DNA of 64,000 nt. Origin: Candidatus Latescibacterota bacterium (GTDB lineage Bacteria; Latescibacterota; UBA2968; UBA8231). Position 1 is the stretch's first letter. Each line of letters starts with the position of its first letter. Below, piece after piece: positions 45,832 to 63,689 of this stretch. The stretch lies in NCBI GenBank assembly GCA_965223905.1, contig CBDCXV010000010.1, positions 1,280,001 through 1,344,000 on the forward strand, in the 5' to 3' direction. The notes under the pieces were generated by a model, which made no database searches, was not told the DNA's origin, and saw nothing but the letters and a program-made list of their open reading frames with translations. Made by a program: the position numbers and the translations under genes.

Positions 45832-48702
45832 TCACGCCGAGGTGGGCGGTTCCCCGCTGGCAAAGTTCATGGACAACAGTTCCCGCAGCGCCTGGTCCTC
45901 CGAAACATCTACATCCCACCCATAGGCCGCCGCCACAGATGCATCGAGAGCCGAGTGCGCGTCCTCGAGCCACTGAGGGCGGGCGTTGTAGAGGTTGGTC
46001 AGCGTGCGCTTCTTGAGCTCCTTCTCCGCTTCCTCGTCGCGGGGCACGGGGCGCCTGGGATAACCTGCAACAGGCTCCTCCACCCACTCCACCCATTCGG
46101 GCGGATTCAGCCACCGGTCTCTCAGCTCGACCAGCCGTCGGGCTGCGTCGGCAATGGCAACGGCGGGCGGATCATCCGCATAGTCCGTCGCGGGAACGTC
46201 GGGCGACAGCCCCTCCGGGAACGGGTAAGTCTCGAATGTTGTCGTCGGGGTGTAGCGCGGGCGGTCTTCCAGGCTTGTGCCCAGGCGCAGGGACCACGCC
46301 TCGTGAAAGCGGCTGTGCAGGATCCCGAAGGTGGTGTCGTCGTCGCGCGCGATGACGATCAGTTGATGATCAGGACAAACCCGCGCGTCAAGCCAGGCGA
46401 ACAGCCGGTGCTTTGCTACCGTCGGCGTAACGATGTAACGCTGCAGTCCGTCGAGTGCCTCCCACATACCCGGCCTCGGCTCGACGTGCCGCCACCAATT
46501 GGTGCGGTAGGCTTCTCGCCGGTTCCCTTGCCGCTTCGGATAGACGTGCTCCATTGCGTGTCGAAACGGGGCCTCGTAGAGCGCCGCCTCCTCCCGCACC
46601 ATGCTGGATCCGAAATCGACGATCCATTTGTCCGCCGGGCGCCGCGTGACGTCCATGCCGTTCATCCATGGTCCCAGGACATCGGAGTTGGGTCTCCCGT
46701 TCGGGTTGGCCGGCTCCCGCAGCCATTCCCGGGCCTGCTCTCCAGGGACGTCGAAGGGGCCGCCCTTCGTGTCCCCCATGAAGGCGACGCCCATGTTCCG
46801 GTGAAGCCGCCGAGCCTCCGTCAGATCGATGCCCGCCCCGCCGCGCTTCGCGGTCAGGTCGGCGTGAACCTCATCGACAAGTTGGCCGTCGAGTCTCCGT
46901 CCCGACACCGATCCGGCATCCTGCCCCGAGAAGCAGATCAGGGAAACGCGTACCGCGGCGCCGTCGATCACCCACGGCTCGTCGCTCCATGCCTCGAAGA
47001 TCGGACGGCCGTCGATCGCGGTCTGCAAGGCCCTCCGGTTCGCGCCCCCTCTAATTGAATTGGTCGAGACGAGGCCGGCTCGTTTCGCTTTGCCCGCTGC
47101 GAGGTGATCACCGGCCTTCACGAACCAGTAGCAAACGAGATCGACCTCGGCCGGCACGCGGCCTTCGTACGCAGCGAAAATTCTCCCAACGTACTCCTCC
47201 CCGAGGTGGGCGTTGAGGAGCTTGCCGCCGAGAAACGGCGGGTTGCCGATCACCACGTCGGCCTGCGGCCACTCCGGCTCGCTTCCCTCCGGCGACAGGA
47301 TCGCGTCGCGGCATTCGATGGTGTCGAGCGGCTTTAGGATCGGATCGCGCAACTCCCCGAATCCGTTGCGCCGCATCCACTGGATCTCGCCGATCCAGAC
47401 CGACACGCGGGCCAGTTCCGCGGCGTAGGGGTTGATCTCGATTCCCCTGACGTTGGCCGGGCCGACCCGGGGGAATTCGCGCTGGAGGCCCATGGCGTCG
47501 GCCTCCAGCTGCACCCGGTGCTCCAGGTCCTTGAGCGCGTGCAGCGCCAGATAGAGGAAGTTGCCGGAACCGCAGGCGGGATCGAGCACCGTGAAGCCGC
47601 GCAGGCGTTCGAGAAAGGCGCGCAGCAGCCGTTCAGCCTGTCCCCGCTGCCGTGTCCCTGCGGCCCTCGACCTGGTTCCGCCGGCGCGATCGAGAGCGGC
47701 TGCGATCTCCGCCTTCACCCTCTCCCATTCCGCCAGCAGGGGACGGACGACCACGGGCTCGACGATGCGCATGATCTTGTCCCGGTCGGTGTAGTGCGCC
47801 CCGAGCTGCGAACGCTTGTCCGGGTCGAGACCGCGCTCGAACAGGGTGCCGAGGATGGAAGGGTCGATCTCGGCCCAGTCGAGCGACGCGGCTTCGAGCG
47901 CCGTCTCGATCTCCGCCTTCTCGAGGGACAGGGCGGCATCGTCGTCGAACAGCCCGCCGTTGAACCACGCCACTGCCTCGAATCCGACGCGGCCCCCGTT
48001 GGACATCGCCGCGAACAGATCGCGGGCCATGCCGGCGAACTCCTGCGGTTGCCGGCGCGCCTGTTGCAGCATGCGCGTGAACATGTCCCCCGGCAGCAGG
48101 CCCACGTCCTCGGCGAACATGCAGAAGACGAGGCGATTGATGAAGTGCGCCACCGCCTGCGGGTCGTGGCCGCGCTCCCTCAGCGACTGCGCCAGCGCCG
48201 CGAAAGCGGTGGCCGCGCGCTCGGTGAGTGTCTGGCGCGTCTCTCCCGGACGCAGGCGCTCGGGATCGGAGAGCGCCCACTTGAGCTTGTCGCGGACCGC
48301 GGCGTCGGCGAGGTCGTCGATGGCGAACTCGAGGGTTTCGCTGACGCTGTTGGTCCAGTTGGTGCGGATGCGGAACCGCCGCATGTCGGAGACGATCAGA
48401 AGCGGCGGGTTCTCCAGGGCCAGGGCGTACTGCCTGAGCTGATCGAAGGCGGCGTCGAGGTTGGCTTGGCCGCCCTTGTACTCCCAGGCGAAGCAGTGCC
48501 GCTTCCACACGTCGGCCCAACCGCCGACGCCGGTCTCCTTGCGCGCTCCCTTCTCGAAGCAGTAGGTCTCGCCGGTCGGGTCGGCCTCGGCCGGTGTCGG
48601 TTCGCCCAGGAGCCGGCACAAGTCGATGAAGTGCTCCTGCGATGCCGAGCGTTCCTTCAGCTCCGACGCCCGCCACTTGGAGATGAATTCACCCGGGGTC
48701 AT
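45832..48702 (-). CDS. Fused restriction-modification enzyme, MmeI-like (Type IIG/IIL), N6-adenine MTase
   Basis: ADVW...WEYKG nuclease motif, FNGGLF, GAHYT, DPACGSGNF, GNPPF, RYTPTTTFETYPFP, LTNLYN. Confidence 0.9.
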   Translation of the reverse strand: MTPGEFISKWRASELKERSASQEHFIDLCRLLGEPTPAEADPTGETYCFEKGARKETGVGGWADVWKRHCFAWEYKGGQANLDAAFDQLRQYALALENPPLLIVSDMRRFRIRTNWTNSVSETLEFAIDDLADAAVRDKLKWALSDPERLRPGETRQTLTERAATAFAALAQSLRERGHDPQAVAHFINRLVFCMFAEDVGLLPGDMFTRMLQQARRQPQEFAGMARDLFAAMSNGGRVGFEAVAWFNGGLFDDDAALSLEKAEIETALEAASLDWAEIDPSILGTLFERGLDPDKRSQLGAHYTDRDKIMRIVEPVVVRPLLAEWERVKAEIAAALDRAGGTRSRAAGTRQRGQAERLLRAFLERLRGFTVLDPACGSGNFLYLALHALKDLEHRVQLEADAMGLQREFPRVGPANVRGIEINPYAAELARVSVWIGEIQWMRRNGFGELRDPILKPLDTIECRDAILSPEGSEPEWPQADVVIGNPPFLGGKLLNAHLGEEYVGRIFAAYEGRVPAEVDLVCYWFVKAGDHLAAGKAKRAGLVSTNSIRGGANRRALQTAIDGRPIFEAWSDEPWVIDGAAVRVSLICFSGQDAGSVSGRRLDGQLVDEVHADLTAKRGGAGIDLTEARRLHRNMGVAFMGDTKGGPFDVPGEQAREWLREPANPNGRPNSDVLGPWMNGMDVTRRPADKWIVDFGSSMVREEAALYEAPFRHAMEHVYPKRQGNRREAYRTNWWRHVEPRPGMWEALDGLQRYIVTPTVAKHRLFAWLDARVCPDHQLIVIARDDDTTFGILHSRFHEAWSLRLGTSLEDRPRYTPTTTFETYPFPEGLSPDVPATDYADDPPAVAIADAARRLVELRDRWLNPPEWVEWVEEPVAGYPRRPVPRDEEAEKELKKRTLTNLYNARPQWLEDAHSALDASVAAAYGWDVDVSEDQALRELLSMNFASGEPPTSA

Positions 48703-49124
48703 GGGTTCACCTGCAACCCGAGCTTTGTCCGCAAAGAAGTCACGATGCGCAAATCTCCAGCTCTCTCGAATCCTTCATATCTCAAGATGCCGCTGCCCGG
48801 TTCGGGCGGCAAACCAGTGGACTTGAAGACTGCGACGACTGCGGGGAGGGCCCGGTGGACCTTGCCTAATCACCGGTTTCGTTTCGGACTGAGCTACGCT
48901 GGTGAGCGAAAGGTTCGGGCGCCTTGCTTCACCGATTCCCGGTTCTTTGTGCCCTACTCCTCAATTTCTCCTCAGGCGGAACAACGCACACTTTCGCGAT
49001 CCCCTCGATCCTTTCCAAACCCACCCATAATCCCGTTTATCCTGCCCATGCGCTGCCCCCGCTTGGTGGACGCGCCCGTGACCCACTGCGACCCGCACGG
49101 GATTCCATAGCTGCCCAAATTGCG

Positions 49125-49390
49125 ATGAAAACCCGTCACAGAGCTTACGCCTATATCACCAACGGGAGCCGCCTGCTTCTTTTTACTCAACCCGAGGCAC
49201 CGGAAGCTGGCATTCAAGTTCCAGCTGGAACAATTGAACCAGGAGAGAATCCTCAGGATGCCGTGATGCGAGAAGCAAAGGAGGAGACGGGTATAACCGA
49301 GCTCAGATGTGAACGGTTTCTGGCCCAGGATACCCGAGACATGCGGGATTGCGGGCGCGATGAACTACAGTATCGCTGGTTCTTTCATTT
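49125..49390 (+). pseudogene. NUDIX hydrolase, C-terminally truncated (probable former cassette gene)
   Basis: Nudix box PAGTIEPGENPQDAVMREAKEETG; breaks at an attC half-site. Confidence 0.8.
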
Positions 49391-49440
49391 GGGCCTACGG
49401 CAACCCGCTTCCCGGGTTCGCAAACCGGGGATCGTCAGGG
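49391..49440 (+). other. Orphan 3' half of an attC site with degenerate R' (GTCAGGG)
   Basis: ggcctacggcaacccgcttcccgggttcgcaaaccgggg closely matches the attC at 61410-61457. Confidence 0.75.
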
Positions 49441-49490
49441 CAAAACCGGGTTCATGTTTTCGTATATTGTTGAGGGCATGGAGGTCAAGG

Positions 49491-49715
49491 ATGAATGAAC
49501 GAATCACAATCGATCCCTCGATCCGTCATGGCAAGCCGGTGGTGCGGGGGACCCGAGTGCCCGTGCACCGAATTATCGGGAACCTTGCAGGTGGGGCAAC
49601 CCCAGAAGAAGTCTGTGAGGAATATGGCATTACCGACGCGGATGTACGGGCTGCTCTTGAGTACGCTGAGGAACTCGTAGAAGCAGAAGAAGCTCATCCA
49701 CTACCTGCATCCTGA
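49491..49715 (+). CDS. DUF433 antitoxin
   Basis: RITIDPSIRHGKPVVRGTRVPV, EEY.IT.ADVRAALEY; ggagg SD. Confidence 0.88.
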   Translation: MNERITIDPSIRHGKPVVRGTRVPVHRIIGNLAGGATPEEVCEEYGITDADVRAALEYAEELVEAEEAHPLPAS

Positions 49716-49721
49716 ATCGGT

Positions 49722-49780
49722 TTGCAATTCATCATCGACGCTGATCTTCCACGCGCTGTAGCCCGTGTGATCGCCGATAA
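49722..49780 (+). pseudogene. DUF5615 PIN-like toxin, N-terminal stub
   Basis: MQFIIDADLPRAVA directly after DUF433, then truncated. Confidence 0.65.
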
Positions 49781-49808
49781 GTACGCATCAACCTCAAGGG
49801 AGGAAACT

Positions 49809-52433
49809 GTGAGCATGAAGACGATAATACCGCGCGCACTCACCCCTGGCCGGCTCGCCATCTTCGCCGCGCTGTTGTCCCTGTCGGCCACGGCCACCGC
49901 GACGGCCCAGACAACCGGAACGATCGAGGGCACGGTCGTCGACGAGAACGGCTTCTCCTTGCCCGGCGTCCTGGTGACGGCGACCGGTTCCGGCGTGCGC
50001 GAGGAAAGCGTGACCGACGTCGCCGGCTCCTACGGGTTCGCCGGCCTTGCCGCCGGGGACTATCTCGTAACGGCGACCCTGCCTGGTTTCGATCCCGTCG
50101 AGCGTCGGGTCTCTGTCCAGGCGGGCGCCACCGAAACCGTCCCGCTCGTTCTGCAGGTCCCATTGCTTCTCGATACGCTCAGCGTCGTCGCCGACGAACC
50201 CCGGACTTTCGCGCGCAACGTCGTCCCCGTGCCGATGATCCGGCAGCAGTCGAACATCACCAGCGTCGCCGCGGTGGTGGACAACCTCCCCGGGGTATCC
50301 ATCCAGGAGGGGGACGCGTACGGGTTCGACGACTGGTCGAACAATGCCGTCGTGCGCGGCTTCCAGGTGACCATCAGCGAGGCGCAGATCGGCACCACCG
50401 TCGACGGCTTTCCCAACGGCACCTCCGACTACTTCAGCGGCGCCAAAGCGAACCGGTTCATCGACCCGATGAACCTCGGAGGGGTCGAGGTGTCGCAGGG
50501 GACGGCCGACATAGCCTCCCGGTCGGTCGAGGCGCTGGGCGGCACCTTCAACTACCGGACGGACGATCCGGCGGCGGAGCGGACCTACACCGCGTCGACC
50601 ACCCTCGGCGAGAACGACGGCAAGCGCTTCTCCATGCGGGTCGACACCGGACCGTTGTTCGGCGGTGAGACGCGCGCCTGGATCGCCGCGGTCCGGCAGG
50701 AGGCGACCGACTGGGTGCAGGGCTCGGCGAGGAACGAACGGGAGCACATCGCCGCCAAGATGGTTTCGCCGCGCGGGCGCCTCGATCTCACCGGCTACCT
50801 CTCCTACGACGATATCCACGAGGATACCTACCAGCGGATCTACGGCGAGGCCGATTTCCGGGCGAACCCGCGCTGGGACCGGCTGGTCGGCGACTGGCCC
50901 GGGGTGCCCTACCTCAACCAGTTCTACCGGCCCGGCTGGCAGACCCGGCGCACCAACACGCTCGCCTACCTCAAGGCCGACTGGCCGTTCAGCGAGCTCA
51001 GCAACCTGAGCGCCGGCGCCTACTACCATCGCAACAGGGGCCGCGGCGACTGGCTGCCCCCTTACATAGTCGACGTGGTCGACGACGGGGATGGACCCGA
51101 GTCGGAGCTGGCGGGCCTCCCACCGGTGCGGGGCGGCGATCAGCCCGGGCTCATCCGCTTCGTGGACGGCAACGGCGTTGCCGTCGCACCGGCGCCCGAC
51201 TGCGAGTCGTCCTACATCTACAACTACTACGGCTCGGGAGGCCCGGAGGTCGACCCGGCCTGCCACCCGGGGGCCACGGCAGTGCAATCGTACCGCCACA
51301 GCCACTACGGGAAGGATCGCCTCGGCGCAACCCTCGACGGGGAATGGTCCACTTCCATTGGCGGGGCCGGCAGCGCCCTGCGTGCCGGGATCTGGTACGA
51401 GGGCTCGCGGCGCGACCTCGGCCGGGACTGGCACCGGATGCTGGATCCGGCGCTCAGCTTCAAGTGGGACGAGCGGCCCTACTGGCACCAGTACGAGTGG
51501 GACTTCCCGCAGCACGTCTTCAAGTGGTACCTGGAGGAGACGCTTTACGCCGGTGCGCTGGCCCTGAGCGCCGGCATCAAGCAGTTCCGGATCGGCGTGT
51601 CGCGCGAGGACAAGTTCGATGTCGACCCGGAACTGACGGTCGATTCCGATTCGGATCTGCTCTTCTCGGGGGGTGTCACCTACGAGACGCCGGTGGCGGG
51701 CCTCGACCTGTTCGCCGGCTATGCGGAGAACTTCAAGGCGATCAGCAGCACGCTGCTCGAAGTCCCGGGCAGGAGTCTGGACCTCCTCGAACCCGAGACC
51801 GCCTCGAACATCGACGTGGGGCTGCAGTATGTCGGCGAACGGGTCGCGTTGAGCGCCGCCTGGTACTCCATCGATTTCCAGAACCGGATCTTCTACCTCG
51901 GCCCGCAGACGACCGCCGGTCCCAACTACCTCATCCCCGGGGGCGGAGCCTACTTCAACGCGGGGGGTATCGAAACGAGCGGGGTCGAGCTGTCCGCCAC
52001 GGTGCCGTTGCCGAATCGGACCTCGTTCTACACAGCGGTCACCTTCAACGACTCGAAATACATAGGGACCGGCGATCCGCTCGTCGACGACAACCAGGGC
52101 ATCGTGCCCGGCACCGACGTTGCGGGCGTACCGGGCCGGCTGTGGGTCCTCTCGCTCGACCGCAGCGGGCCGCTTGCCGGCGGCCTGTCCGCCAAGTACA
52201 CGTCGCCGCGGCGCGTCAGTCTGGCCGCGGACTGGGACACGGACGCCTACTGGCTGGTGGACGCCTACGTCAGTTTCTCGGGGGGAGCGTTGAGCGATCA
52301 GCTGCGGTCGGCGGAGTTCTCGATCGTGGCGAACAACCCGCTCGACAAGGCCTATCTGTCCGCAATCACCGAGAATGCCGCCTGGCTGGGCGCGCCGCGC
52401 ACGGTTTCAGTGACTGCGACCGTCTCCTTCTGA
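49809..52433 (+). CDS. TonB-dependent receptor with N-terminal carboxypeptidase-regulatory-like domain
   Basis: Signal peptide, TGTIEGTVVD..G.SLPGV, plug (LPGV, VRGF, DGFPN), LEPETA, GVEL, NxLDKAY, GAPRT, terminal F. Confidence 0.9.
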   Translation: MSMKTIIPRALTPGRLAIFAALLSLSATATATAQTTGTIEGTVVDENGFSLPGVLVTATGSGVREESVTDVAGSYGFAGLAAGDYLVTATLPGFDPVERRVSVQAGATETVPLVLQVPLLLDTLSVVADEPRTFARNVVPVPMIRQQSNITSVAAVVDNLPGVSIQEGDAYGFDDWSNNAVVRGFQVTISEAQIGTTVDGFPNGTSDYFSGAKANRFIDPMNLGGVEVSQGTADIASRSVEALGGTFNYRTDDPAAERTYTASTTLGENDGKRFSMRVDTGPLFGGETRAWIAAVRQEATDWVQGSARNEREHIAAKMVSPRGRLDLTGYLSYDDIHEDTYQRIYGEADFRANPRWDRLVGDWPGVPYLNQFYRPGWQTRRTNTLAYLKADWPFSELSNLSAGAYYHRNRGRGDWLPPYIVDVVDDGDGPESELAGLPPVRGGDQPGLIRFVDGNGVAVAPAPDCESSYIYNYYGSGGPEVDPACHPGATAVQSYRHSHYGKDRLGATLDGEWSTSIGGAGSALRAGIWYEGSRRDLGRDWHRMLDPALSFKWDERPYWHQYEWDFPQHVFKWYLEETLYAGALALSAGIKQFRIGVSREDKFDVDPELTVDSDSDLLFSGGVTYETPVAGLDLFAGYAENFKAISSTLLEVPGRSLDLLEPETASNIDVGLQYVGERVALSAAWYSIDFQNRIFYLGPQTTAGPNYLIPGGGAYFNAGGIETSGVELSATVPLPNRTSFYTAVTFNDSKYIGTGDPLVDDNQGIVPGTDVAGVPGRLWVLSLDRSGPLAGGLSAKYTSPRRVSLAADWDTDAYWLVDAYVSFSGGALSDQLRSAEFSIVANNPLDKAYLSAITENAAWLGAPRTVSVTATVSF

Positions 52434-52452
52434 GGGGAATGCGGGTGCAGCA

Positions 52453-53372
52453 ATGAGGGCGACGTTGCTTCCGATGTTGGTGCTGGCATTCTACCTGATT
52501 GCCGCGGGCAGCTCCGTGCAGGCGCATTGGGGGGATCGGGTGTACCCCATATACGAACTGACGGAGAGCATGCTGGCAGATATCGATGTGACGGATGGCT
52601 TGATCGATGAATGGCAGGAGATTGGGCCGCCTTCAGCGACGGGTCTGGACTTTTCAGTCTTCTCCTTGTGGGAGGAGCCGGAATACGATCCATCCGATCT
52701 GGATTTACGGCTGTGGTTGGGTTGGTCGGCGTCTCAGAGCCGGATCTACGTGGCTCTGGCATGCGTGGACAACGTGGGGGTCAATCGGACCAACTACGAC
52801 CCCGCAGACGAACACTTGCCACTCGATGGATTCGGCTTCTACGTCGATGCCGATCACAGCGGCGGCGATTTTTTTCCGACGGCCGCCCCTGACTAAGTGA
52901 AGAGTACAAGCTGCAGGACGACGCCCAAGTACAGAGTTACGGCATCTCGCCAGATGTACCACCCGGCGAGGATAATATTCTGGGCATGTCGGCTTGGGCG
53001 GACTGGCCGGAGGAGCCGCCCTTTGGCCAAGGATTCGGAATCACACACGGGGAAAACCCGTCTATTTGGGTTGTCGAGTTTTACCTGACGCCGTTTGACC
53101 TCTTTGTGTATTCGGGGGCGGAAGAGAGTGCCGTCTCGGCCCTGTCCGCCGGCAAGGTCATTGGTTTCAGATGTCTGGTTAACGATGCCGACGGCGGCGT
53201 TTTATTCACGGAGAATTTCAAGAGATACCTTCTGCCCGCGATGGGTCTGGACGCACACCTAGAGAACGAAGTCAACGCGGATTCGTTTGCTGATGGGGTT
53301 CTGATCGGAGCAGAAGGTACGGTGGTCGAAGATCTCACCTGGGGCCGGATCAAGGCGTCGTTGGACAGATGA
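52453..53372 (+). pseudogene. Secreted sugar-binding-like protein with WGRIK tail; frameshift near 52893
   Basis: Signal peptide, DGLIDEW, DLDLRLWLGW, VDADHSGG; second frame VEFYLTPFD...TVVEDLTWGRIKAS. Confidence 0.65.
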
Positions 53373-53467
53373 TTGCGGCAGTGCCTGTCAGGGGACTTGA
53401 CCGCCGTAAGCAATACCACCGTGTGGGAGTATCTGATTACGACCGTTCAGCCAAATACGTACCATCG

Positions 53468-53532
53468 TTTCGGATAAGTAACCCTCGGGCGGTTGTTATC
53501 CGAACAATTGGTTCGGGTACAATCAGTTAGGC
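53468..53532 (+). other. Putative integron attI-like site heading the cassette array
   Basis: First GTTAGGC core (53526-53532) has no upstream attC hairpin; it is preceded by ttcggataa/ttatccgaa and ccgaac/gttcgg inverted repeats. Confidence 0.55.
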
Positions 53533-53865
53533 GAAGGCATAAGAAAAAATGGATGGATTTGGTGGAGTATAGATCATGAGAGGGTGTTGGAGAGTTCGGG
53601 CTGGCGCTTTGCAGTGGAGGAGCATTTACGGAGATGGTCGCCTCGTCGCACGTGATTTCCCAACCCCGTCCGGCGCGCTAATACCGCTTGGGCGTTGCGT
53701 TTTACCTGGTCAAGAAATGATGAAATCAATGGGCAGTTGGGGAGATCGGGACCTGCGGATTGGGAGACCGACGAAAGATGGAGGGCTGAGGAGGGGCGCC
53801 GGACGGCCTCTCCACCACCCAAGCCCGAGAGTTTCTCCCATCGTGGTCGATCCGAGCAGGCCCTC
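53533..53865. other. ORF-less cassette A (candidate ncRNA or promoter cassette)
   Basis: No credible ORF; paralog of 54924-55255. Confidence 0.7.
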
Positions 53866-53949
53866 GCCTAACACCTGTTCCCCCGGCTTCGGGCCCTGCG
53901 GGCCCTCCGCCAAACCGCTGTGCGGTTCGGGGGCACTGAGACGTTAGCC
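53866..53949 (+). other. attC 1
   Basis: GCCTAAC...GTTAGCC, 84 bp. Confidence 0.9.
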
Positions 53950-53953
53950 GCAA

Positions 53954-54721
53954 GTGGCATTACAACTGACCCATTCCGTGACCAACATGCTGAGCGAGAT
54001 CTACCGGACGAGTTTCGAGTGGGCCAAGCTGGGTGGCCATATCATCGAACACCGTTTTGGAGTCACCGTTTACAACTTGGACCACCCTGAGTACAACGAG
54101 AATAACTGCCTTTGGTATTTCGATCCAGGATTGGCGGATGAGTTTACTTTCCAGGTGGTTGTGGCGGAATTCGAAAGCCTGGGTGTGAGCTGCTCTCAAT
54201 GGGTTCCTTCCCCTTCCGCCAATCTGGATTTATGTGACAATTACTTCCGTGTTCATGAGATGGCTGATTCACCAGGAGAAGGCTTATTGCTCGATCTTGA
54301 TAGGGAATACCACGCTGACGCGAGAATCTGCGCGAAACGCAGCAACAAGCAATCCCTTGCGCAGGTCTATTCCTTGAGTGGCCAGAGATCAACTAGCACT
54401 GTCACGAGGAACAAAGCCTTATCTCTTTTGGGGATAGCGAACTACGAATCGTATGTTTGCTACTGGGATGGGGAACTGGCGGGCAGAGCTGGACTGCTGA
54501 GGGTTCCGGGAAAAGTCGCTCGATTGAAGAGCATTTTCGTCGGCGCCACATTTCGCCGTCAGGGAGTTGCTAGCAGCCTGATAAGGGTGATCGCCACCAA
54601 AGCGAGGGAACTGGGGTACCGCTATCTAGCGTCCGAAGTAGACCCTTCCAACGAGGCGTCGTCGGAATGTCATCGAAAGGTAGGGTTCAAAACCGCAGGG
54701 CTTGTTCACGCGTACAAATGA
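53954..54721 (+). CDS. GNAT-family acetyltransferase (cassette)
   Basis: FVGATFRRQGVASSL; N.AS..CHRKVGF. Confidence 0.85.
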   Translation: MALQLTHSVTNMLSEIYRTSFEWAKLGGHIIEHRFGVTVYNLDHPEYNENNCLWYFDPGLADEFTFQVVVAEFESLGVSCSQWVPSPSANLDLCDNYFRVHEMADSPGEGLLLDLDREYHADARICAKRSNKQSLAQVYSLSGQRSTSTVTRNKALSLLGIANYESYVCYWDGELAGRAGLLRVPGKVARLKSIFVGATFRRQGVASSLIRVIATKARELGYRYLASEVDPSNEASSECHRKVGFKTAGLVHAYK

Positions 54722-54839
54722 CTCGGAGATGGACATCACGCCTATTCCTCGGAGTGAAAGATCAAAACCAGTTGTGTACGTTGTGCCGGCTTTTTAAGGC
54801 CAACCGCGGTTTCTTCGCGTCGAAGGCCAAGCCACCAGC

Positions 54840-54923
54840 GGCTAACACGCCGGGCTGCGGCTCCGGCCATCCGGCCTTCGCCCAACCCGCTTCGCGGGTT
54901 CGCAGCCCACGAAAGCGTTAAGC
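54840..54923 (+). other. attC 2
   Basis: GGCTAAC...GTTAAGC, 84 bp. Confidence 0.9.
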
Positions 54924-55255
54924 GAAGGCCAAGGAAAATTTGATTGATTTGGTGGAGTATAGGTCATGATAGGCTGTTGCGGAGTTCGGGGTGGTCCCTC
55001 GCGGTGAGGAAGCATTTGCAGAGATGGGCGGCTCGTCGCACGTGATTCCCCACCCCGTCCGGCGCGCTAATACCGCTTGGGCGTTGCGTTTTACCTGGTC
55101 AGGAAAAGACGAGATCAATGGGCAGTTGGAGAGGTCGGGACCTGCGGATTGGGAGACCGACGAAAGATGGAGGGCTGAGCAAGGGCGCCGGACGGCCTCT
55201 CCACCGCCCAAGCCCGAGAGTTTTCTCCCATCGTGGTCGGGCAGAGCAGGCCCTC
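54924..55255. other. ORF-less cassette B (paralog of A)
   Basis: Colinear with cassette A, with long identical blocks and 1-bp indels. Confidence 0.7.
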
Positions 55256-55340
55256 GCTTAACACCTGTGTCCCCGGCTCCGGGCCCTGCGGGCCCCTCGC
55301 GCAACCGCTTCGCGGTTCGGGGGCACGGAAGACGATATAT
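55256..55340 (+). other. attC 3 (R' = GATATAT)
   Basis: GCTTAAC...GATATAT; body resembles attC 1. Confidence 0.85.
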
Positions 55341-55432
55341 GACATGGGTTGTCACAGTACCAGTGAAATTCGACAGAGGCAAAGCTGGCACGGTTGAAAT
55401 CATGAGCCTGCAGGCGCTGGAGAAAAACTGAC

Positions 55433-55924
55433 GTGGATCGCGTAGCCGTATTCGCAGATGTACAGAATGTTTACTACACAGTTAAGCAGCAACATAATTG
55501 CCATTTCGACTATGGTTCTTTCCTCAGGGAGGCGACAGCCGGCCGGAAACTGGTGAAGGCAGTAGCCTATGCTATTGACAAAGGCGACAGAAAGCAGGCC
55601 CAATTTCAGAAAATTCTGAAACGGCTCGGTTTTGAGGTAAAGCTCGCGCCTTATATTCAGAGAGCTGACGGCTCAGCCAAAGGGGACTGGGACGTGGGCA
55701 TTACGGTCGATATGTTGGAGTACGCAGATCGCGTGGATGTCGCTGTCCTGGCTTCAGGTGACGGAGACTACGCGCCTGCAATTGACAAGCTAATCAAGGA
55801 ATCCAAGGTATCCGTCGAGGTGTACGGTGTCCCAGGACTAACTGCTAGTCGTCTAATCGAATCGGCGACGCGATTTGTGCCAATTCAAGGAGATCTGTTG
55901 CTGCCTATTCCCACCACGTGGTGA
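55433..55924 (+). CDS. NYN-domain (LabA/DUF88) protein (cassette)
   Basis: FADVQNVYY, KGDWDVGITVD, SGDGDY, VEVYGV. Confidence 0.9.
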   Translation: MDRVAVFADVQNVYYTVKQQHNCHFDYGSFLREATAGRKLVKAVAYAIDKGDRKQAQFQKILKRLGFEVKLAPYIQRADGSAKGDWDVGITVDMLEYADRVDVAVLASGDGDYAPAIDKLIKESKVSVEVYGVPGLTASRLIESATRFVPIQGDLLLPIPTTW

Positions 55925-56021
55925 CGTGGAAGCGACACTGTTGCAAAGCCATGCACGCTAACGCACTCTCGCGTCGCTACCTCTCTGCGTTGATCAGCCT
56001 TGGAGCAATCATACCCACGTC

Positions 56022-56111
56022 ATATATCACAGCAATTCACGCTGCCGCCATTCGGCGCTTGGCCTTCGGCAAGTCGCTTTCGCGACTTCGTGAATTGTGA
56101 GAACGTTACAT
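56022..56111 (+). other. attC 4 (R'' = ATATATC)
   Basis: ATATATC...GTTACAT; caattcacg/cgtgaattg L boxes. Confidence 0.85.
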
Positions 56112-56154
56112 GAAATGCTTGATAGATATCTGCGATAGACGCTGACAACACGAG

Positions 56155-56784
56155 ATGGACGTAAATCTTCTCTCATCGCGACTTGCCTCGGAATTGGGCT
56201 CGAATAGACTCCTCGTAGCCGCACTCGATGGTCCCGGCGGAGCTGGAAAGTCAACCATCGCCAGGAAACTAAGCGAGAGGTGTAATCTCATCTCAATCGT
56301 TCACGGGGATGACTTCTATGCTCCAATGGAGGAGCATGCGAGAATGGCTCTAACGCCTGAAAATGGTTACATGAGGTATTTTGATTGGGCGAGAATACGG
56401 AGTGAGCTTCTTGAACCCTTATCGCGTGGAGATCGAGCTCGCTACAAGCGCTATGATTGGGGGAGCAACCAGCTGGCGGAGTGGGTTGATCAACCGGCTG
56501 AGGGCATCATCCTGATCGATGGGGTCTATTCATTTCGGCCCGAATTGAGGAAATTCTATGGCTACTCCATTTTCGTCGACACTCCGAAAGCCGAATGTCT
56601 GGATAGGCTGGTCAAGCGAGGTGAAAACACAGACGAATGGATTCGGAGATGGAGGGCAGCGGAAGATTACTATCTGACGCATATAGACACTGCCAGTGCT
56701 GTTTCCGTCGTTGTTTCAGGCATAGGAAGCGCTGGAGCATCGGATCCGATATCGCGACCGAGGATATCCGCGCACTTCATGTAA
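56155..56784 (+). CDS. Uridine-kinase-like P-loop protein (cassette)
   Basis: DGPGGAGKST, HGDDFY, IDGVY; stop codon lies inside the R'' ATGTAAC. Confidence 0.85.
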   Translation: MDVNLLSSRLASELGSNRLLVAALDGPGGAGKSTIARKLSERCNLISIVHGDDFYAPMEEHARMALTPENGYMRYFDWARIRSELLEPLSRGDRARYKRYDWGSNQLAEWVDQPAEGIILIDGVYSFRPELRKFYGYSIFVDTPKAECLDRLVKRGENTDEWIRRWRAAEDYYLTHIDTASAVSVVVSGIGSAGASDPISRPRISAHFM

Positions 56785-56859
56785 CACCGTGCCCCCGGCT
56801 TCGGGGCAAAGCCCCTTAGCCCAACCGCTACGCGGTTCGGGAGCACTGAAACGTTAGCC
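56779..56859 (+). other. attC 5
   Basis: ATGTAAC...GTTAGCC, 81 bp. Confidence 0.9.
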
Positions 56860-56929
56860 GAAATGTCGGTTTGAGGCTTACATCATTGCCTCGAGTTGTG
56901 ATTCAACAGAATCAGAAGGAGATGGTCCC

Positions 56930-58642
56930 TTGATAGGTGATTTTGATGTCGATCCGATCACAGGGCGCCTCGTTCTGTGGTGCCGGAGCATTTCCGGAGA
57001 AACCTGGTTGAAAATTACGGAGCCCTCAGGTGAGATCATTGGGGAAGTACCGCCTGAATTTCTTCCCCATCATCCGCGTTGGGCTCCAGATGGACTTCGT
57101 CTTACGTTTTCTGGGAACGATGGCCGCATCGGTGTCTATGAGCTATCTCAGAATGACATAAGGGTCGTCTACGAAGATCAATCCATGCAAGCGGGGTTCA
57201 GCCAGTGGTCGCCAAACGGCACAAGCCTCGTGTTTTCTGCCTACGAAAAGCACAGTACCGAGCAATTGAATAAACGGCCACCTGACATTTTTCACCTCAC
57301 ATTGGATAGCGGCAAACTTGATAGATTGACCGCATCGAAGGACAGTGTGGACAGGTTTCCAAATTGGTCCCCATCCGGTGACCTGATTGCATTTCATCGG
57401 CAAAACCTGGAGGAGCTTAACAAGCCTAAGAAAGTGCATCTATTTGATCTTCAACGTCAAAGAATATCCTTGCTCCTGCCCGAGGCAAATGGTAACCGAT
57501 TTGGTCGATTCCCCTGGTCACGTGACGAAAGCTGGTTTGCACTTCACGTGTCCGACGAGAAGGAAGGGACCGTTCACGTTGTAGATCTTACGGGCCGAGA
57601 TTCCGGGTGGATCTATGAAGATGGGCCTGTGAAAGAAGGTGCATTTTCAAACTCGACGAACAGGCTTCTCTGCGTCAGACCCGATGAGCTTGTTTGGGTG
57701 CAGTTTCCCGTAGGCCGCGTAGATTCACGCATCAGATTGGATTCCGGGGTTAGCGTGGCGAAGAACCTGACTTGGTATCAAATCGCCTTCAGAGCCGACA
57801 GCGATACCGTCTTTTTTCTTGGAACAGACCATAAGGTTTACCGCTGGAAAGAATCTGAAGGATGCACTGTCGTAGCTGAGCATACCGAACCCGTACCGAG
57901 TTTTAGGCTTGAGGAATTTACGGTTCCTGCTTCGGATGGTTTAGCTCTTCCAGCACAGCGGTTGGTTCCGCCGTCTCCACGAGAGCTCGCTGTTCTGTAT
58001 GTGCATGGTGGGCCTGGAGGCAGCCTCGATAGAAATGACTCATGGGCTTTAGGGCTGCTTCGCCAGGGATTCGAGATTGTGCGCGTGGCTTATAGGGGCT
58101 CTACCGGCTTCGGCGAGGACCTCGATCGAGCGAACACCGGGGTCGCCGGGGTCGCAGACGTTCAGGATGTATTAGACTGTGGAATCTACTGGCAGCAACA
58201 CTTTAGTACAGGCAGGAGAATCGCTCTGTTCGGTAATAGCTATGGCGGGTTTCTAAGTCTCCTTGCCCTGGCAGATGCATCTTCACCATTCGTAGGTGGG
58301 ATCTCCACGTGCACTTGCACAAGTCTTCGAATCATGCGCCTCCATCATGATAGATTCCTTCCAAGTAGTCCAACGGAACGCGAGAAAGCATTAGTTGAGC
58401 GATCCGTATTGACACATGCTACCCATATAAAGAGGCCAATCCTGCTGGTTCATGGCGCGCTTGATACCGTCGCGACCACAAGCGAAATGCAGCACGTCGA
58501 GAAACTCATTAATGACTCTGGCGGCAACTGTACGCTAATCGTCTTTGGCGACGACACACACAGTTTGGCAAAGCACCGCGAAGAAATATACGAAAAGGCT
58601 ATCCAATTCTATGAAAAGTGTTCAACGCCTGGACAGGATTGA
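56930..58642 (+). CDS. S9 prolyl-oligopeptidase-family protein with TolB-like propeller (cassette)
   Basis: WAPDG and WSPNG repeats, HGGPG, YRGSTGFG, GNSYGG, HGALD, DDTH. Confidence 0.88.
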   Translation: MIGDFDVDPITGRLVLWCRSISGETWLKITEPSGEIIGEVPPEFLPHHPRWAPDGLRLTFSGNDGRIGVYELSQNDIRVVYEDQSMQAGFSQWSPNGTSLVFSAYEKHSTEQLNKRPPDIFHLTLDSGKLDRLTASKDSVDRFPNWSPSGDLIAFHRQNLEELNKPKKVHLFDLQRQRISLLLPEANGNRFGRFPWSRDESWFALHVSDEKEGTVHVVDLTGRDSGWIYEDGPVKEGAFSNSTNRLLCVRPDELVWVQFPVGRVDSRIRLDSGVSVAKNLTWYQIAFRADSDTVFFLGTDHKVYRWKESEGCTVVAEHTEPVPSFRLEEFTVPASDGLALPAQRLVPPSPRELAVLYVHGGPGGSLDRNDSWALGLLRQGFEIVRVAYRGSTGFGEDLDRANTGVAGVADVQDVLDCGIYWQQHFSTGRRIALFGNSYGGFLSLLALADASSPFVGGISTCTCTSLRIMRLHHDRFLPSSPTEREKALVERSVLTHATHIKRPILLVHGALDTVATTSEMQHVEKLINDSGGNCTLIVFGDDTHSLAKHREEIYEKAIQFYEKCSTPGQD

Positions 58643-58662
58643 GCTTTACAGGTCCACACAGC

Positions 58663-58746
58663 AGCTAACACATGGGTCACGGCTTCGGGCCATACGGCCC
58701 TTCGCCCAACTCACTTCGTGAGTTCGTGACCCATCAAACGTTATAC
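58663..58746 (+). other. attC 6
   Basis: AGCTAAC...GTTATAC; atgggtcacg/cgtgacccat. Confidence 0.9.
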
Positions 58747-58757
58747 GCCCCAACAAG

Positions 58758-59507
58758 ATGCTGGAGGAACAGGTGGCCGGAAGTAGAGATGATCTCAGAG
58801 AGGCGGTAGAGCGCGGCGACCTCTCCACTGTCAAACGGCTGTTACATACGGAGCCAGGTCTTCTCCACGAGTCCATCCCTCCATGCGATGATCGCAAACA
58901 ACGAGGCCAGATTCTCAGATACCGACCGATGACGCTCGCCGCCGTGGAGTGTCAGACAGAAATTCTCTCTTTTCTGATTGCCGAGGGGGGCGATGTGATG
59001 GAGTACAGCAATTTTCCACTCTGTCGAGCATCACTCTACGACCGTTGTATTCCAACTCTGGAGTTACTGGTTCAGCATGGCGCAGAGGTAAATCGAGTCG
59101 GTAATGACTACGGTCCGCCGTTGATATTCGCGTGCGAAGGAATGGCCCTCGATTGCATCGCATGGTTGCTGGACAACGGCGCGGCAATCACAGGGACTGG
59201 TCCGAGTTTATCTGAAACCGTGTCTTGGAATGCCCTCAAACATGCGGGCTTCTTCAACCGGAAGTGTTCGGGCATGCTTGATTTGCTCCTCGAGCATGGC
59301 GCTGACGTCAACAGTTCAGTTGTTGATGAGGTTGGCGGAGATCCTGAGACTACGGTACTGCACAATGTCGTGGAAAGCGGGGATATTGCTGGCGTGGAGC
59401 TCCTGCTTACCCATGGGGCTGACCAAGATGCCAAAAATGGCAAGGGACAGCGCCCGGTCGAGGTGGCTCGGGAACGCAAAGTCAGAGAACTACTAGAGAA
59501 CATCTGA
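58758..59507 (+). CDS. Ankyrin-repeat protein (cassette)
   Basis: Repeated LL.HGA.VN and PL..A motifs; KNGKGQRP. Confidence 0.85.
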   Translation: MLEEQVAGSRDDLREAVERGDLSTVKRLLHTEPGLLHESIPPCDDRKQRGQILRYRPMTLAAVECQTEILSFLIAEGGDVMEYSNFPLCRASLYDRCIPTLELLVQHGAEVNRVGNDYGPPLIFACEGMALDCIAWLLDNGAAITGTGPSLSETVSWNALKHAGFFNRKCSGMLDLLLEHGADVNSSVVDEVGGDPETTVLHNVVESGDIAGVELLLTHGADQDAKNGKGQRPVEVARERKVRELLENI

Positions 59508-59516
59508 GGTTGGAGC

Positions 59517-59607
59517 GCATAACCGCACGTTTGGCGATGCGGCGCTTAGCGCGCCTCGGCCTTCGGCAACCCGCTAAGCGGGTTCGCAAACCGGCAACCC
59601 GTTAGCG
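59517..59607 (+). other. attC 7
   Basis: GCATAAC...GTTAGCG, 91 bp. Confidence 0.88.
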
Positions 59608-59662
59608 GCAATGGAGTTCAGGCCTGGCATGTTCCTCTGGCCAGTCATCAGGAGGCACCAAG

Positions 59663-60148
59663 ATGGAGAATATAATCCTTTCGTTGCAGGGTTTCTCTGT
59701 GTTCCTGCAAATCGCTTTCCTAGTCACTTTGATAGCAATCGCACAGACTCTTCGACGCTCAATTGGAATTTGGAGCCCCTCTTGGATTGTTATCTTTTTC
59801 TCTCTGAAATATTTGGGGGAGTATGCTAATCCCTTCCTGATGAAACTGCTGACTGAGGAATGGACGGCGTTAACAGTCCCAAACGCGCCGGTCACCTTAG
59901 GGCAGTTGTTTGTATTTCTCAGTTCCGCTCACCTGATATTCATACTGCTGGGTGCTTTCGGCCTCCTCGCCCTGGTCTTGTCGGACCTATCCCATTCTTT
60001 GTGGGGCGCAGACGACATACACCCCTCACGTTGGTTTCAGTGTTTCGAGTTGGTCGGCCGTCATCGACTCGGATTCGGGTTGGCTACGGTGCTGTTGGCT
60101 GTAGCGCACCCTGCCCTTCTGGTGGGCCTTCTGTTGAGTAACAATTGA
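59663..60148 (+). CDS. Hypothetical membrane protein (cassette)
   Basis: aggagg SD, about four hydrophobic segments, fills the cassette. Confidence 0.7.
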   Translation: MENIILSLQGFSVFLQIAFLVTLIAIAQTLRRSIGIWSPSWIVIFFSLKYLGEYANPFLMKLLTEEWTALTVPNAPVTLGQLFVFLSSAHLIFILLGAFGLLALVLSDLSHSLWGADDIHPSRWFQCFELVGRHRLGFGLATVLLAVAHPALLVGLLLSNN

Positions 60149-60165
60149 GACTGGCAGACCACAGC

Positions 60166-60247
60166 CGATAACACCGTGCCCCTGGCTCCGGCGCCTGCGC
60201 GCCTACGCGCAACCGCTTCGCGGTTCGGGGGCACTGAGACGTTAGAA
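60166..60247 (+). other. attC 8
   Basis: CGATAAC...GTTAGAA, 82 bp. Confidence 0.88.
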
Positions 60248-60344
60248 GAAATGGAAAAAAGAATCAGCGCTTAAGTAAGAAATCGCCTGAATAAAGGTAG
60301 AGGTACGATATATTCGCCGTTCAGTTTTTAGGCAGGAGTTTTTA

Positions 60345-61304
60345 ATGAATAGCAAGGCTAGTATCGTAGATGAGTTTTTGCTTAAAGGGGTCATCGGTAT
60401 GAGCAGGGCGATCGGTAAGAATCGTATGTCTGGCCATCCAGGCGCTGCGATGCTTGCTGCATATTTCTTTTGTGTTGAGAATGCCCTGTCAGACGAGGTT
60501 CAGGCCGAGGTCTATAATCTCGTGAGACGCATGGTCAACTCAGAATCAATGTGGTTCAGCAGAGATGGAGAATCTTCAACCAATGAGATCTTCTTTTCTA
60601 CCAAACCAGATCAGAGACCAAACGCGGATCTAATCCCGTCTGTTGCCACTGCACTAGAACCCAGTATCACCGAATGTCGGGATTCAGGACACAATACTAT
60701 CTTCGCGTCGTTAGTACTGAAGGCACTGCACACCGCGCCACATTATGCATTTCCTGCGATTATTGAAGGTATCATAAACTTGCTCAAAGCTTTTGAGGGA
60801 CGTGGGCCGGGATGGGCACGTGTACCAGGTAATGAGAAATTAGCAGATCCCCGTGAGTTTTCGGTACCTCAAGAACTGGATGATCCTTCCTATGAGAGCC
60901 ATATCGACATGATCGAAGCAGTATCCCGCTATGTCGTACCAGATAACTTCGCCAAAAAAGGCGTTGGTGGGCCGATCCATGTCATAGATCATGCCGTAGC
61001 TCTGTTAGATCTGCACGCGTTGGGGTATTCTTCGTTGGCGAATAGAGGACTGGCAGCTCATCAGCAACATATGAAGTTGTGGCTGGGCCTCCCTAAATTT
61101 CCGCAAGCTGAAAACAGCTACTCCGTGAAATCGAAGCACGATCCTCGCGCATTGGACTACTGGCGTGAGAAGATAACCATAAAAGATGGTGGCGGTGATG
61201 AACACCGACTGAAGATTCTCTATGGCGCGCACCGTTTTGCCGAGTGCATTACAGACGTAAACAAACGTCGAAGTTTTCTTGAAAGTGCGGCGCACCTGTT
61301 TTGA
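60345..61304 (+). CDS. Hypothetical helical protein with spaced His motifs (cassette)
   Basis: aggag SD; GHPGA, GHNTIF, HVIDH, EHRLK; fills the cassette. Confidence 0.7.
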   Translation: MNSKASIVDEFLLKGVIGMSRAIGKNRMSGHPGAAMLAAYFFCVENALSDEVQAEVYNLVRRMVNSESMWFSRDGESSTNEIFFSTKPDQRPNADLIPSVATALEPSITECRDSGHNTIFASLVLKALHTAPHYAFPAIIEGIINLLKAFEGRGPGWARVPGNEKLADPREFSVPQELDDPSYESHIDMIEAVSRYVVPDNFAKKGVGGPIHVIDHAVALLDLHALGYSSLANRGLAAHQQHMKLWLGLPKFPQAENSYSVKSKHDPRALDYWREKITIKDGGGDEHRLKILYGAHRFAECITDVNKRRSFLESAAHLF

Positions 61305-61370
61305 AAATGCGCCTAACGGCGAGCGTTGTTGGCTCTCTTTTTCTTTTACAGAAACTAAATATGCCACTTC

Positions 61371-61457
61371 TTCTAACACATCCATTTACGCTACGGCGCT
61401 ACGCGCCTTGGCCTTCGGCAACCCGCTGCGCGGGGTCGCAAACCGGGGACGTTAGAG
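61371..61457 (+). other. attC 9
   Basis: TTCTAAC...GTTAGAG, 87 bp. Confidence 0.9.
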
Positions 61458-61991
61458 GCCATGCGGCCAGACAAGAGGACAATCGCAAATGAGGCTTGGG
61501 AGAATCTGACGATGCTGGAAGAGGGTGAATCCGTCCAAGGTTGTGTCAATCCCGTTGTGCGGATTGGAGATACCGTGCGCAGGCCTATCCATAGCTGGAC
61601 TCCAGCCGTCCATTCCTTGCTGCACTACTTGGAGGCGGTTGGCTTTTCAGGATCTCCCCGTGTCCTCGGATTCGACGAACTGGGAAGAGAGGTGCTTTCG
61701 TTCATCCCAGGGGAAGTTGCTCTGCGACCATGGCCGGAGGTGATGGGTGAGGAGAAGGGCCTCGCTGAGGTCGCCCGTTTTCTCTCCAGATATCACAATG
61801 CCGTGAAAGACTTTGAGCCACCAGAGAATGCTGAATGGTATGTTCCCATGTGACGTGGCGACCAGGAATGACCATCCGACACGGGGATCTTGGACCCTGG
61901 AATACTATCTGGGAAGGGCGAACCTTAAACTGGAGTTGACCCGATTTCGTGGACACTTCATTTCTTGGAGAAAGAAAGGAGATGTCCAACC

Positions 61992-62306
61992 ATGCCGAAA
62001 TCACATAGCCCGTATCCGCCGGAATTCCGGCAACAGATGGTTGAGCTCGTACGGGCGGGTCGTAGCCCGGAGGCGTTGGCCAAGGAATTCGAGCCGTCCG
62101 GGCAGACGATCCGCAACTGGGTGATCCAGGCCGAACGCGATGAGGGGGTGCGTCGCGACGGGCCGAGCCGCCCCGAACAGGAGGAGCTGCGGCGCCTTCG
62201 CCGTGAGAACAAGCAACTGCGTATCGAACGGGGGATCCTGGCAAAAGCCACGGCCTGGTTCGCTCGCGAGGCCGACTCGGGGTCCGGCCCGTCTACGAGT
62301 TCATGA
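61992..62306 (+). CDS. IS3 OrfA
   Basis: YPPEFRQQMVEL HTH, EELRRLRRENKQL zipper; AAAAG slip site at 62243-62247. Confidence 0.9.
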   Translation: MPKSHSPYPPEFRQQMVELVRAGRSPEALAKEFEPSGQTIRNWVIQAERDEGVRRDGPSRPEQEELRRLRRENKQLRIERGILAKATAWFAREADSGSGPSTSS

Positions 62307-63187
62307 GAGCGCACCAGGCCGACTTTCCGGTGTTCACGATGTGCCGCGTGCTGAAGGTGTCCCCCAGCGGCTACTACGCCTGGTTGAAGCGCCCGCCGTC
62401 GGGTCGCACTCGGGCCGATGCGGTGCTCAAGGCGCGCGTCGAGCAGATCCACCAACGCTCCCGAGGCACTTACGGGGCGCCGAGGATCCGGGCCGAACTG
62501 GCCGAGGAGGGGCGCGGCGTCAGTCGCAAGCGCATCGCCCGATTGATGCTCGAGCTCGGGGTGCGTGGGGTATGCGGGCGGCGCCGGATCTCCACGACCC
62601 GCCGCAGCCGGCAGGGCCGGGTCGCCTCCGACCTGGTCAACCGGGTGTTTTCGGCCTCGGGCCCGAATCTGCTGTGGGTTGCCGACATCACCTACCTGCC
62701 CACCGCTTCGGGTTTTTTGTATCTGAGTGTGGTGGTCGACGCCTGGAGCCGCCGGGTGGTGGGCTGGGCTATGGCGAGCCATCTGCGTACGCAGCTGGTG
62801 CTCGACGCCCTTGACATGGCCCTGTACCGGCGTCGCCCCCACTCGGTAATCCACCACTCCGATCACGGCAGTCAGTATACGGCCCTGGCCTTCGGGCAAC
62901 GCTGTCGCCAGGCCGGGGTGCGCCCGTCGATGGGATCGGTCGGTGACTGCTACGACAATGCCCTGTGCGAAAGCTTTTTCGCCACGCTGGAAAGGGAGTT
63001 GTTGGATCGTCATCGGTTTGCTACCCATGCCGAGGCCCGGCTAGCTGTTTTCGAGTACCTGGAAGGCGGGTACAATCGCCAGCGGCGGCATTCCGCCCTG
63101 GGACAACGGTCTCCCGTCAACTACGAGAGATATCACCAATCAGAGAGTGTAGATCCAAACGCAAAACTGTCCGTGAAATCGGGGTAA
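62303..63187 (+). CDS. IS3 OrfB DDE transposase
   Basis: YGAPRI, WVADITY, HHSDHGSQY, DNALCESFF, YNRQRRHS; ATGA overlap with orfA. Confidence 0.93.
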   Translation: MRAHQADFPVFTMCRVLKVSPSGYYAWLKRPPSGRTRADAVLKARVEQIHQRSRGTYGAPRIRAELAEEGRGVSRKRIARLMLELGVRGVCGRRRISTTRRSRQGRVASDLVNRVFSASGPNLLWVADITYLPTASGFLYLSVVVDAWSRRVVGWAMASHLRTQLVLDALDMALYRRRPHSVIHHSDHGSQYTALAFGQRCRQAGVRPSMGSVGDCYDNALCESFFATLERELLDRHRFATHAEARLAVFEYLEGGYNRQRRHSALGQRSPVNYERYHQSESVDPNAKLSVKSG

Positions 63188-63562
63188 CCTCAAACGGGGT
63201 AATCGACTGGGACTTTGCTGAACCAGGTGATGCTCTCTGCGATGTTAGTCAGTTTGCTTGGTATGCGGTGCCTCTCCGAGGAGAAGACCACTGGAGAAAG
63301 GCTGGATTTTCTGATAAGCCTGATCTCAGGGCCAGACTAACCGTACTTTCTGACACCTATGGTACGGACTCCAAAGCAATCTTGGACACCCTATGCAATC
63401 TGCAATTGGAAGAGTATCGCAGGACCGAGACTCTGGGCAGGCAGGGACTCCTCCCCTGGTCCATCTTCTACGAACGTGGGGATCTTGCGGAACTCTCAAA
63501 AGAAAACACGTGGCTGAGAGAGAATTACGATTCGCTTGCCGTATAGAAGCGGTCCGCACGTC

Positions 63563-63658: not shown

Positions 63659-63689
63659 GCCATCTGAAAGATTCCACTGTGGAGGACTC

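Follow-up and report, generated by a model that had tools for sequence, protein, structure and literature searches.

To our knowledge the GTT/AAC triplet is the only sequence common to all integron recombination sites. The integron crossover falls after the G of R', so that the first six bases of a cassette move along with it and, once it is excised as a circle, are paired with its own R''. Close counterparts of the site reported here were engineered in 2009, when the same double mutant, a compensated T2->A2 change, was made in attCaadA7 and attCVCRd (Frumerie et al., Nucleic Acids Res 2010, PMC2811028). In that study the compensated site recombined with attI1 by IntI1 at increased frequency, whereas an uncompensated GTT-ATC site fell from 2.2e-3 to 6e-6, a ~370-fold loss, and only the first nucleotide (G/C) had to match between partner sites. 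The authors stated that the triplet is present in every characterised integron and proposed that it is kept for cassette exchange and not for chemistry (PMC2811028). A GWT consensus at genomic insertion sites of IntI1, IntI2 and IntI3 is reported in a more recent preprint (bioRxiv 10.1101/2022.09.11.507474). No description of a natural attC with a compensated GAT/ATC core was found in the literature listings and passages searched; supplementary attC tables (e.g. PMC4889954) could contain some.

The unit described here, which encodes an NYN-domain protein, is very probably a functional integron cassette with an attC that bears a compensated transversion, GAT for GTT and ATC for AAC. Judged by sequence comparison, the site is a natural, mobile, compensated attC variant and not a product of decay, and it is the natural counterpart of the published laboratory mutant.

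The window analysed is a stretch of 64,000 nucleotides (G000:C10:1280001-1344000, G000 being the genome from which it comes). An integron-type cassette array occupies it from ~53.4 kb to its end, with 10 attCs at 53866-63658, all on the + strand, and runs on past the window for at least six more attCs. At the head of the array is an attI-like module (53437..53526, + strand) reading ...TTATCCGAACAATTGGTTCGGGTACAATCAG|TTAGGCG, which is homologous to the site that lies between a recombinase gene and a second copy of the NYN cassette on contig C1 of the same genome; no integrase gene was found next to the module in the window. The conserved form of this ~90 bp module is TGCGACTGTTCA...CAGATAAGTA...TTATSCGAACCAWTKGTTCGSAT..CAG|, and 13 such sites were seen (that of the window and 12 in relatives), most of them without an adjoining recombinase gene. 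Its right half resembles the L'-R' end of attCs (GGTTCG... followed by G|TT).

Several other features of the array were observed. Two paralogous ORF-less cassettes of 417 nt each, at 53527-53943 and 54918-55334, were 81-94% alike in blocks, and the cassette was also found twice in genome G011. The ORF-less cassette folded no better than its shuffles (z = 0.42), and a search of Rfam gave no match at 48500-64000 with E <= 0.01. An APH-like cassette (61452-63652) was interrupted, at about 61958-63200, by an IS with an rve integrase-core transposase. An attC-like remnant with what seems to be GTC at the R' position was seen at 49380-49460, ~4 kb upstream of the array, between the NUDIX part and the DUF433 part of one long ORF.

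The NYN cassette itself spans 55335..56105 on the + strand (771 nt): it opens with the base that follows the crossover G and closes with its own terminal G. These limits are the points at which identity with the copy on C1 begins and stops. Its single gene (55433..55924, + strand) encodes 163 aa from a GTG start with a GGAGA ribosome-binding site upstream, and matches PF01936 with E 1.1e-37 and 130 bits. Upstream is the attC of an ORF-less cassette (55256..55340, + strand), which was scored by the covariance model (R1) at 73.0 bits over its full length (model 1-85), consistent with the alignment. Its R'' is a normal GCTTAAC (55256-55262) and at its R' position (55334-55340) stands G|ATATAT, not G|TTRRRY, the last six bases of which are part of the NYN cassette. 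The NYN cassette's own attC (56022..56111, + strand; R1 67.6 bits, E 5e-13, full length) has L'' AATTCACG at 56034-56041, L' CGTGAATT at 56089-56096, and ends in a normal R', G|TTACAT (56105-56111), in which the six bases after the G are those of the next cassette. GAT is thus the cassette's own R' triplet (G|AT at 55334-55336), and the 7-bp R'' at the other end of the gene is ATATATC (56022-56028), in which ATC (56026-56028) replaces the AAC of RYYYAAC.

When the two arms were compared by reverse complement, the extended R' arm GATATATGACATGGGT (55334..55349, + strand; the crossover G and the first 15 nt of the cassette) proved complementary at 15/16 positions to the extended R'' arm ACCCACGTCATATATC (56013..56028, + strand). 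For one fixed pair a match of this quality has P ~1e-8, and among 63,305 site pairs of the same spacing in the window no other reached it, one other pair reaching 14. In a MAFFT alignment of the 10 window attCs the R'' column read TAAC in nine, TATC being confined to the NYN attC, and the R' column read GTTA in nine, with GATA only in the attC that precedes NYN. The two arms of one R box, in which a T:A pair has been turned to A:T, are therefore G|ATATATGACATGGGT and ACCCACGTCATATATC. The preliminary description had proposed just such a pair of arms, 15/16 complementary and with both triplets changed in a matching way, and both the comparison and the attC register bore it out; the extent that it had given, 55334..56028, was right in arms and register and wrong at the cassette end, which is the G at 56105.

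It had also called for the two bases to be confirmed in raw data. In the Logan contigs of all four public runs inspected (three of organisms and one of a metagenome) 55334-56045 was covered, with no difference at 55335 or 56027. These are contigs and not raw reads, so that minor alleles are possible, and at that level the GAT/ATC bases are not an assembly error. The conserved triplets, AAC in R'' and GTT in R', are absent from the R'' and the R' that the NYN cassette itself carries. The site was nevertheless classed as a variant attC, since only the middle position is altered, on both arms, and laboratory data show that position to be dispensable (PMC2811028).

An inverted repeat of 15/16 around a single gene is also what would be expected of a MITE-like, non-autonomous transposon with 16-bp terminal inverted repeats that had inserted into an attC by chance. 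The mobile unit, however, reaches 77 nt past the right repeat, to the terminal G of the attC, and there is no target-site duplication, two observations that exclude an inverted-repeat transposon for practical purposes; moreover the repeats coincide with the R' and R'' positions of a complete attC, and all other cassettes of the array show a like complementarity between start and R''.

That complementarity was quantified in 180 cassettes from nine related genomes over R-box positions 5-16, a range that leaves out the consensus GTTA. Cassette starts matched their own R'' at a mean of 8.03/12 positions, against 4.55/12 for the R'' of the upstream attC and 4.41 +/- 0.11 for shuffled partners. When the NYN attC was folded as DNA in its circle form, the bottom strand gave a 17-bp R stem, an unpaired spacer, an L stem with one bulged base and a three-way tip. 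The energy of this fold was -33.8 kcal/mol, compared with -23.2 for the bottom strand of the array form and -29.9 for the top strand of the circle form, the asymmetry of an imperfect palindrome that is characteristic of attC sites. For each of nine window cassettes the circle form folded better than the array form, and in 9/9 circle forms the bottom strand was better folded than the top. An A in the cassette start was often seen to face a C in the cassette's own R'' near R-box position 11 (e.g. 55344 with 56018); in the bottom strand such a pair becomes a G:T wobble, whereas the top strand has an A:C mismatch, and an ATG is often found there. RNAalifold applied to the first MAFFT alignment returned tip hairpins only, without the R and L stems, and the attC structure for the covariance model was then supplied by hand.

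Searches for the cassette in other arrays, as had been suggested, were productive. When the 76 genomes of the order were searched at the DNA level, four related ones proved to contain the 771-nt unit with 98-100% identity, namely G000 (three copies), G010, G015 and G011. To the left of the near-identical copies stand five different neighbours (three attI-like sites, an attC common to the window and G011, and a further, unrelated attC) and to their right four, and the shared sequence starts exactly at G|ATATAT and stops at ...GAGAACG|, as a discrete unit with its crossover at G| on both sides. On C1 a tyrosine-recombinase gene and an attI-like site precede the copy, which is the first cassette there and differs from that of the window by five substitutions and two single-base indels between G|ATATAT and GAGAACG|TTA. 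First place at an attI-like site is also taken by the third copy of G000 and by that of G010; the G015 copy comes after an unrelated attC, and in G011 the preceding cassette is the ORF-less one known from the window. De Bruijn contigs of the four public runs break exactly at 55334, as a branch of the sequence graph at the edge of a cassette would cause them to do, and in one metagenome contig G|ATATAT follows a further attI-like flank. A single contig joint from 55321 to 56051 (runs X7 and X9, side 30), within repeated attC sequence, was also seen.

In principle the same copies could stem from a dead relic that segmental duplication or homologous recombination had spread, with the GAT/ATC match inherited without function. 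The only array-adjacent recombinase gene of G000 is frameshifted, and some copies are damaged: the attC breaks off directly behind ATATAT in G011 and G015, and the third G000 copy has an IS inside R''. Such a relic is very unlikely, because on either side, in five left and four right contexts, the identity goes no further than the crossover G. The three attI-like left flanks are only ~85% alike (read by eye, not computed) when the G000 cassettes are 99-100% identical, which argues for separate integrations and not for a duplicated segment. The unit is furthermore the first cassette at 3/13 attI-like sites, with another GAT-start cassette at a fourth. The assertion of the preliminary description that this is not random decay, and that the cassette recombined with a GAT core, is accordingly upheld. 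The evidence for mobility consists of sequence contexts, the published rates being those of IntI1 and the G000 gene being disrupted. AT starts were in excess at attI-like sites (4/13 attI-proximal cassettes as against GAT at 12/216 in-array junctions; Fisher p = 0.008, for cases that are not independent), which fits efficient integration and is no proof of it. In the third NYN copy (L028, G000:C10:1667900-1670800) a ~2 kb insertion was found inside the ATAT of R'' and an 80-bp element, with the same ends as the insertion, inside the gene.

The same search recovered diverged NYN homologues in G007 (87%), G006 (86%), G015 (84%), G055 (84%) and G010-C2 (74%). The G007 homologue has both changes, with G|ATTTAT and R'' ATGTATC. 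That of G015 keeps G|ATATAT, its attC being cut off just after ATATAT, and that of G010-C2 keeps ATATATC, only its R'' being readable, for its start was not found within the fetched locus. Homologues with only one of the two changes, which according to the preliminary description would have counted against compensation, were thus not found in the NYN family, and four single-change cassettes unrelated to it do exist.

The wider distribution of the variant was surveyed with the covariance model, built from 18 attCs of G000 with three GAT or ATC sites in the seed; an nhmmer attC profile served for a first look only, and all counts are those of the covariance model. Matches were obtained in 36 of the 76 genomes, and 29 loci from nine of the 36, picked as larger arrays, yielded 216 attCs. 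Their R'' triplets were AAC in 194, ATC in 13 and other in 9, and their R' triplets GTT in 186, GAT in 12, GTC in 4 and other in 14. GAT/ATC thus recurs at roughly 6% of sites in this bacterial family. Rarer off-consensus cores were also noted, R' GTC (4), ATT (3), CTT (2) and TTT (2) and R'' GAC (2), as candidates.

In 190 intervals between consecutive attCs the pairs formed by a cassette start and its own R'' were GTT/AAC in 157, GAT/ATC in 5, GAT/AAC in 6, GTT/ATC in 2 and other in 20. GAT and ATC were associated (2x2 table of interval pairs, Fisher p = 8e-6), a test that overstates independence, given the kinship of the genomes and the NYN-type 5' attC half found in several ATC sites. Several apparent mismatches turned out to be intervals that hold an undetected or truncated attC. 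When each GAT or ATC case was inspected, 11 loci in six cassette families were concordant and four were discordant, with one further locus ambiguous. The concordant families comprise NYN and a second family with the start ATATCYGAAATRGG, together with two cassettes of G014 and one each of G015 and G012; the discordant cassettes are GAT/AAC in a G012 kinase-like cassette and at G015:251200, and GTT/ATC at G015:254831 and in a G013 cassette of family 2. Part of the concordance is a matter of shared ancestry and not of independent compensation, in view of the common 5' half of the NYN-type attC and of hybrid attCs. In three GAT-start cassettes the truncated attC still ends in ATAT(A). A canonical twin of the NYN R box occurs in G000 (GTTATATGACATGAG...CACGTCATATAAC) and an apparent single-change intermediate in G015 (GTTATATGAC...GTCATATATC). 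With the twin, the discordant and the concordant cassettes taken together, it is clear that canonical, single-change and compensated states all exist.

A few loci fell outside these pairings. The start of the cassette that ends at a solitary ATC-type attC, G000:C10:1618834, was not found, and G015:259450 (G|ATAGGA), considered as a paired cassette, was left unpaired since what comes after it is an attI-like site instead of an attC of its own. The three GAT-start cassettes with a truncated attC, at L033 (G011), L026/L050 (G015) and L031 (G010), are fused to their neighbours: almost the whole attC is gone, and R'' ...ATAT(A) is followed after 0-9 nt by the G|TTA of the next cassette.

Two of the discordant cassettes bear on how the match between the arms arose. 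The homologue of the G012 kinase-like cassette is the one after NYN in the window; the G012 form begins GATATAT|GAAATGC, not GTTACAT|GAAATGC; this R' 7-mer is the exact complement of NYN's R'', and the cassette's own R'' stays ATGTAAC. In the G013 cassette of family 2 the swapped 7-mer is GTTAGAT against GATATCT. The two swapped 7-bp R' cores lie at L065 (G012:C3 ~4118000) and L060 (G013:C1 ~1758880); the rest of each cassette was unchanged relative to its homologues, and the exchange point in both was just after the 7-mer. Cores of this kind are what might be left if one arm had been copied from the other by mismatch correction or template switching in a hairpin or cruciform, instead of both changes having been selected as mutations. 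A deletion or recombination at the common ATGA/GAAATG motif immediately past the 7-mer would explain both equally well, however, and the apparent single-change intermediate of G015 also speaks against copying. The published 370-fold penalty for a mismatch (PMC2811028) suffices for selection, and arm copying is considered unlikely. The suggestion made earlier that one end was templated from the other finds a parallel in the G012 7-mer that matches NYN's R'', and is not needed as an explanation.

The arrays are accompanied by a recombinase of an unusual type. A short tyrosine recombinase, 293-301 aa when intact, is encoded divergently beside attI-like sites and arrays in G000-C1, G011, G013, G015 and G010-C2, in the order gene, attI-like module, array, and in G014 a short recombinase gene lies ~700 bp from the first attC. 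Loci of the gene are L029 (G000:C1) ~5252-6142 on the minus strand, L033 4490-5371 and L045 1183-2088. The G011 and G013 proteins matched TIGR02249 with 224 and 240 bits respectively, each in two stretches and below the cut-off of 265, and NF040815 with 212 and 207 bits against a cut-off of 220. The IntI-specific domain near patch III is missing, the gaps amounting to ~31 and ~13 columns relative to three canonical IntI of relatives. In the present assembly of G000 the gene is frameshifted, with the C-terminal catalytic part in another reading frame. Canonical IntI was not found in G000, G010, G011, G013, G014 or G015, four of which (G010, G011, G014 and G015) are one- or two-contig assemblies, and it was present in 9 of the 76 genomes of the order. 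In G006 and G007 the surroundings of the canonical IntI gene, out to ~14 kb, contained no attC of this family. The arrays headed by the short recombinase hold tens of attCs, which may be set against the account of Cury et al. A short-integrase scan of the genome collection outside the window's own lineage revealed only distant relatives, with 43-62% identity, in many phyla.

A mechanism can be proposed for the compensated variant by analogy with the published work on IntI1. The bottom strand of the excised circle would fold into a normal attC hairpin, with a perfect A:T in place of T:A, and the integrase would cut 5'-ATATAT|C-3' instead of 5'-RYYYAA|C-3' on the folded strand. Strand exchange with a canonical partner would need only the shared C/G, and integration at ordinary G|TT sites should work for that reason. 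Once the cassette was integrated, the hybrid attCs on its two flanks would both be mismatched at position 2 (AAC/GAT upstream and ATC/GTT downstream), as a consequence of which lower recombination is expected. That penalty would in turn select for a paired R box and so keep both changes together, and single-change cassettes may represent transient intermediates or products of core exchange. The mechanism predicts a cassette that integrates well and then hinders the excision of itself and of its two neighbours. The preliminary description had inferred a relaxed integrase specificity; at the second triplet position this is indeed seen in nature, and as an implication it is not new, having already been demonstrated experimentally for IntI1 (PMC2811028).

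It is possible, and is suggested here tentatively, that the short Xer-like recombinase, which lacks the domain regarded as the hallmark of integron integrases, takes the place of a canonical IntI in running the arrays of this bacterial family. GAT/ATC might then be a self-compatible minor core allele that integrates well at attI and afterwards partly locks itself and its neighbours through mismatched hybrids, and the swapped 7-bp cores of G012 and G013 would be a hint of exchange at the core's far side. A natural system with ~6% GAT/ATC, rarer single-change forms and a canonical twin makes the idea that the triplet is kept for exchange and not for chemistry a testable case. It raises the questions of whether such cassettes integrate normally, whether they are poorly excised through mismatched hybrids and whether they form a partly isolated exchange pool. 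A practical consequence is that pattern-based attC finders that require GTT/AAC miss these cassette boundaries.

In comparison with canonical chromosomal-integron attCs (R''-L''...L'-R', RYYYAAC/GTTRRRY), the NYN attC likewise lies 3' of a promoterless ORF and has R and L boxes, an unpaired spacer, a bulged base, a variable tip, a crossover at G| and a bottom strand that folds better than the top. It differs from them in the inverted middle base pair of the triplet (GAT/ATC) and in an R stem extended to ~16 bp, the latter a feature common to the other cassettes of this array. With the mutants of Frumerie et al. (PMC2811028) it shares exactly the same double change, and in its array form (R'' ATC, R' GTT) it corresponds to their 'non-complementary' construct. 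Those sites were engineered and recombined by IntI1 in E. coli, whereas the NYN site is natural, has another attC backbone and belongs to a host in which canonical IntI was not found. Secondary and genomic GWT sites (bioRxiv 2022.09.11.507474, and refs 21 and 6 cited in PMC2811028) also show that a G|AT crossover is accepted by integron integrases. They are double-stranded targets, whereas the NYN variant resides in a folded cassette site and is matched on the opposite arm.
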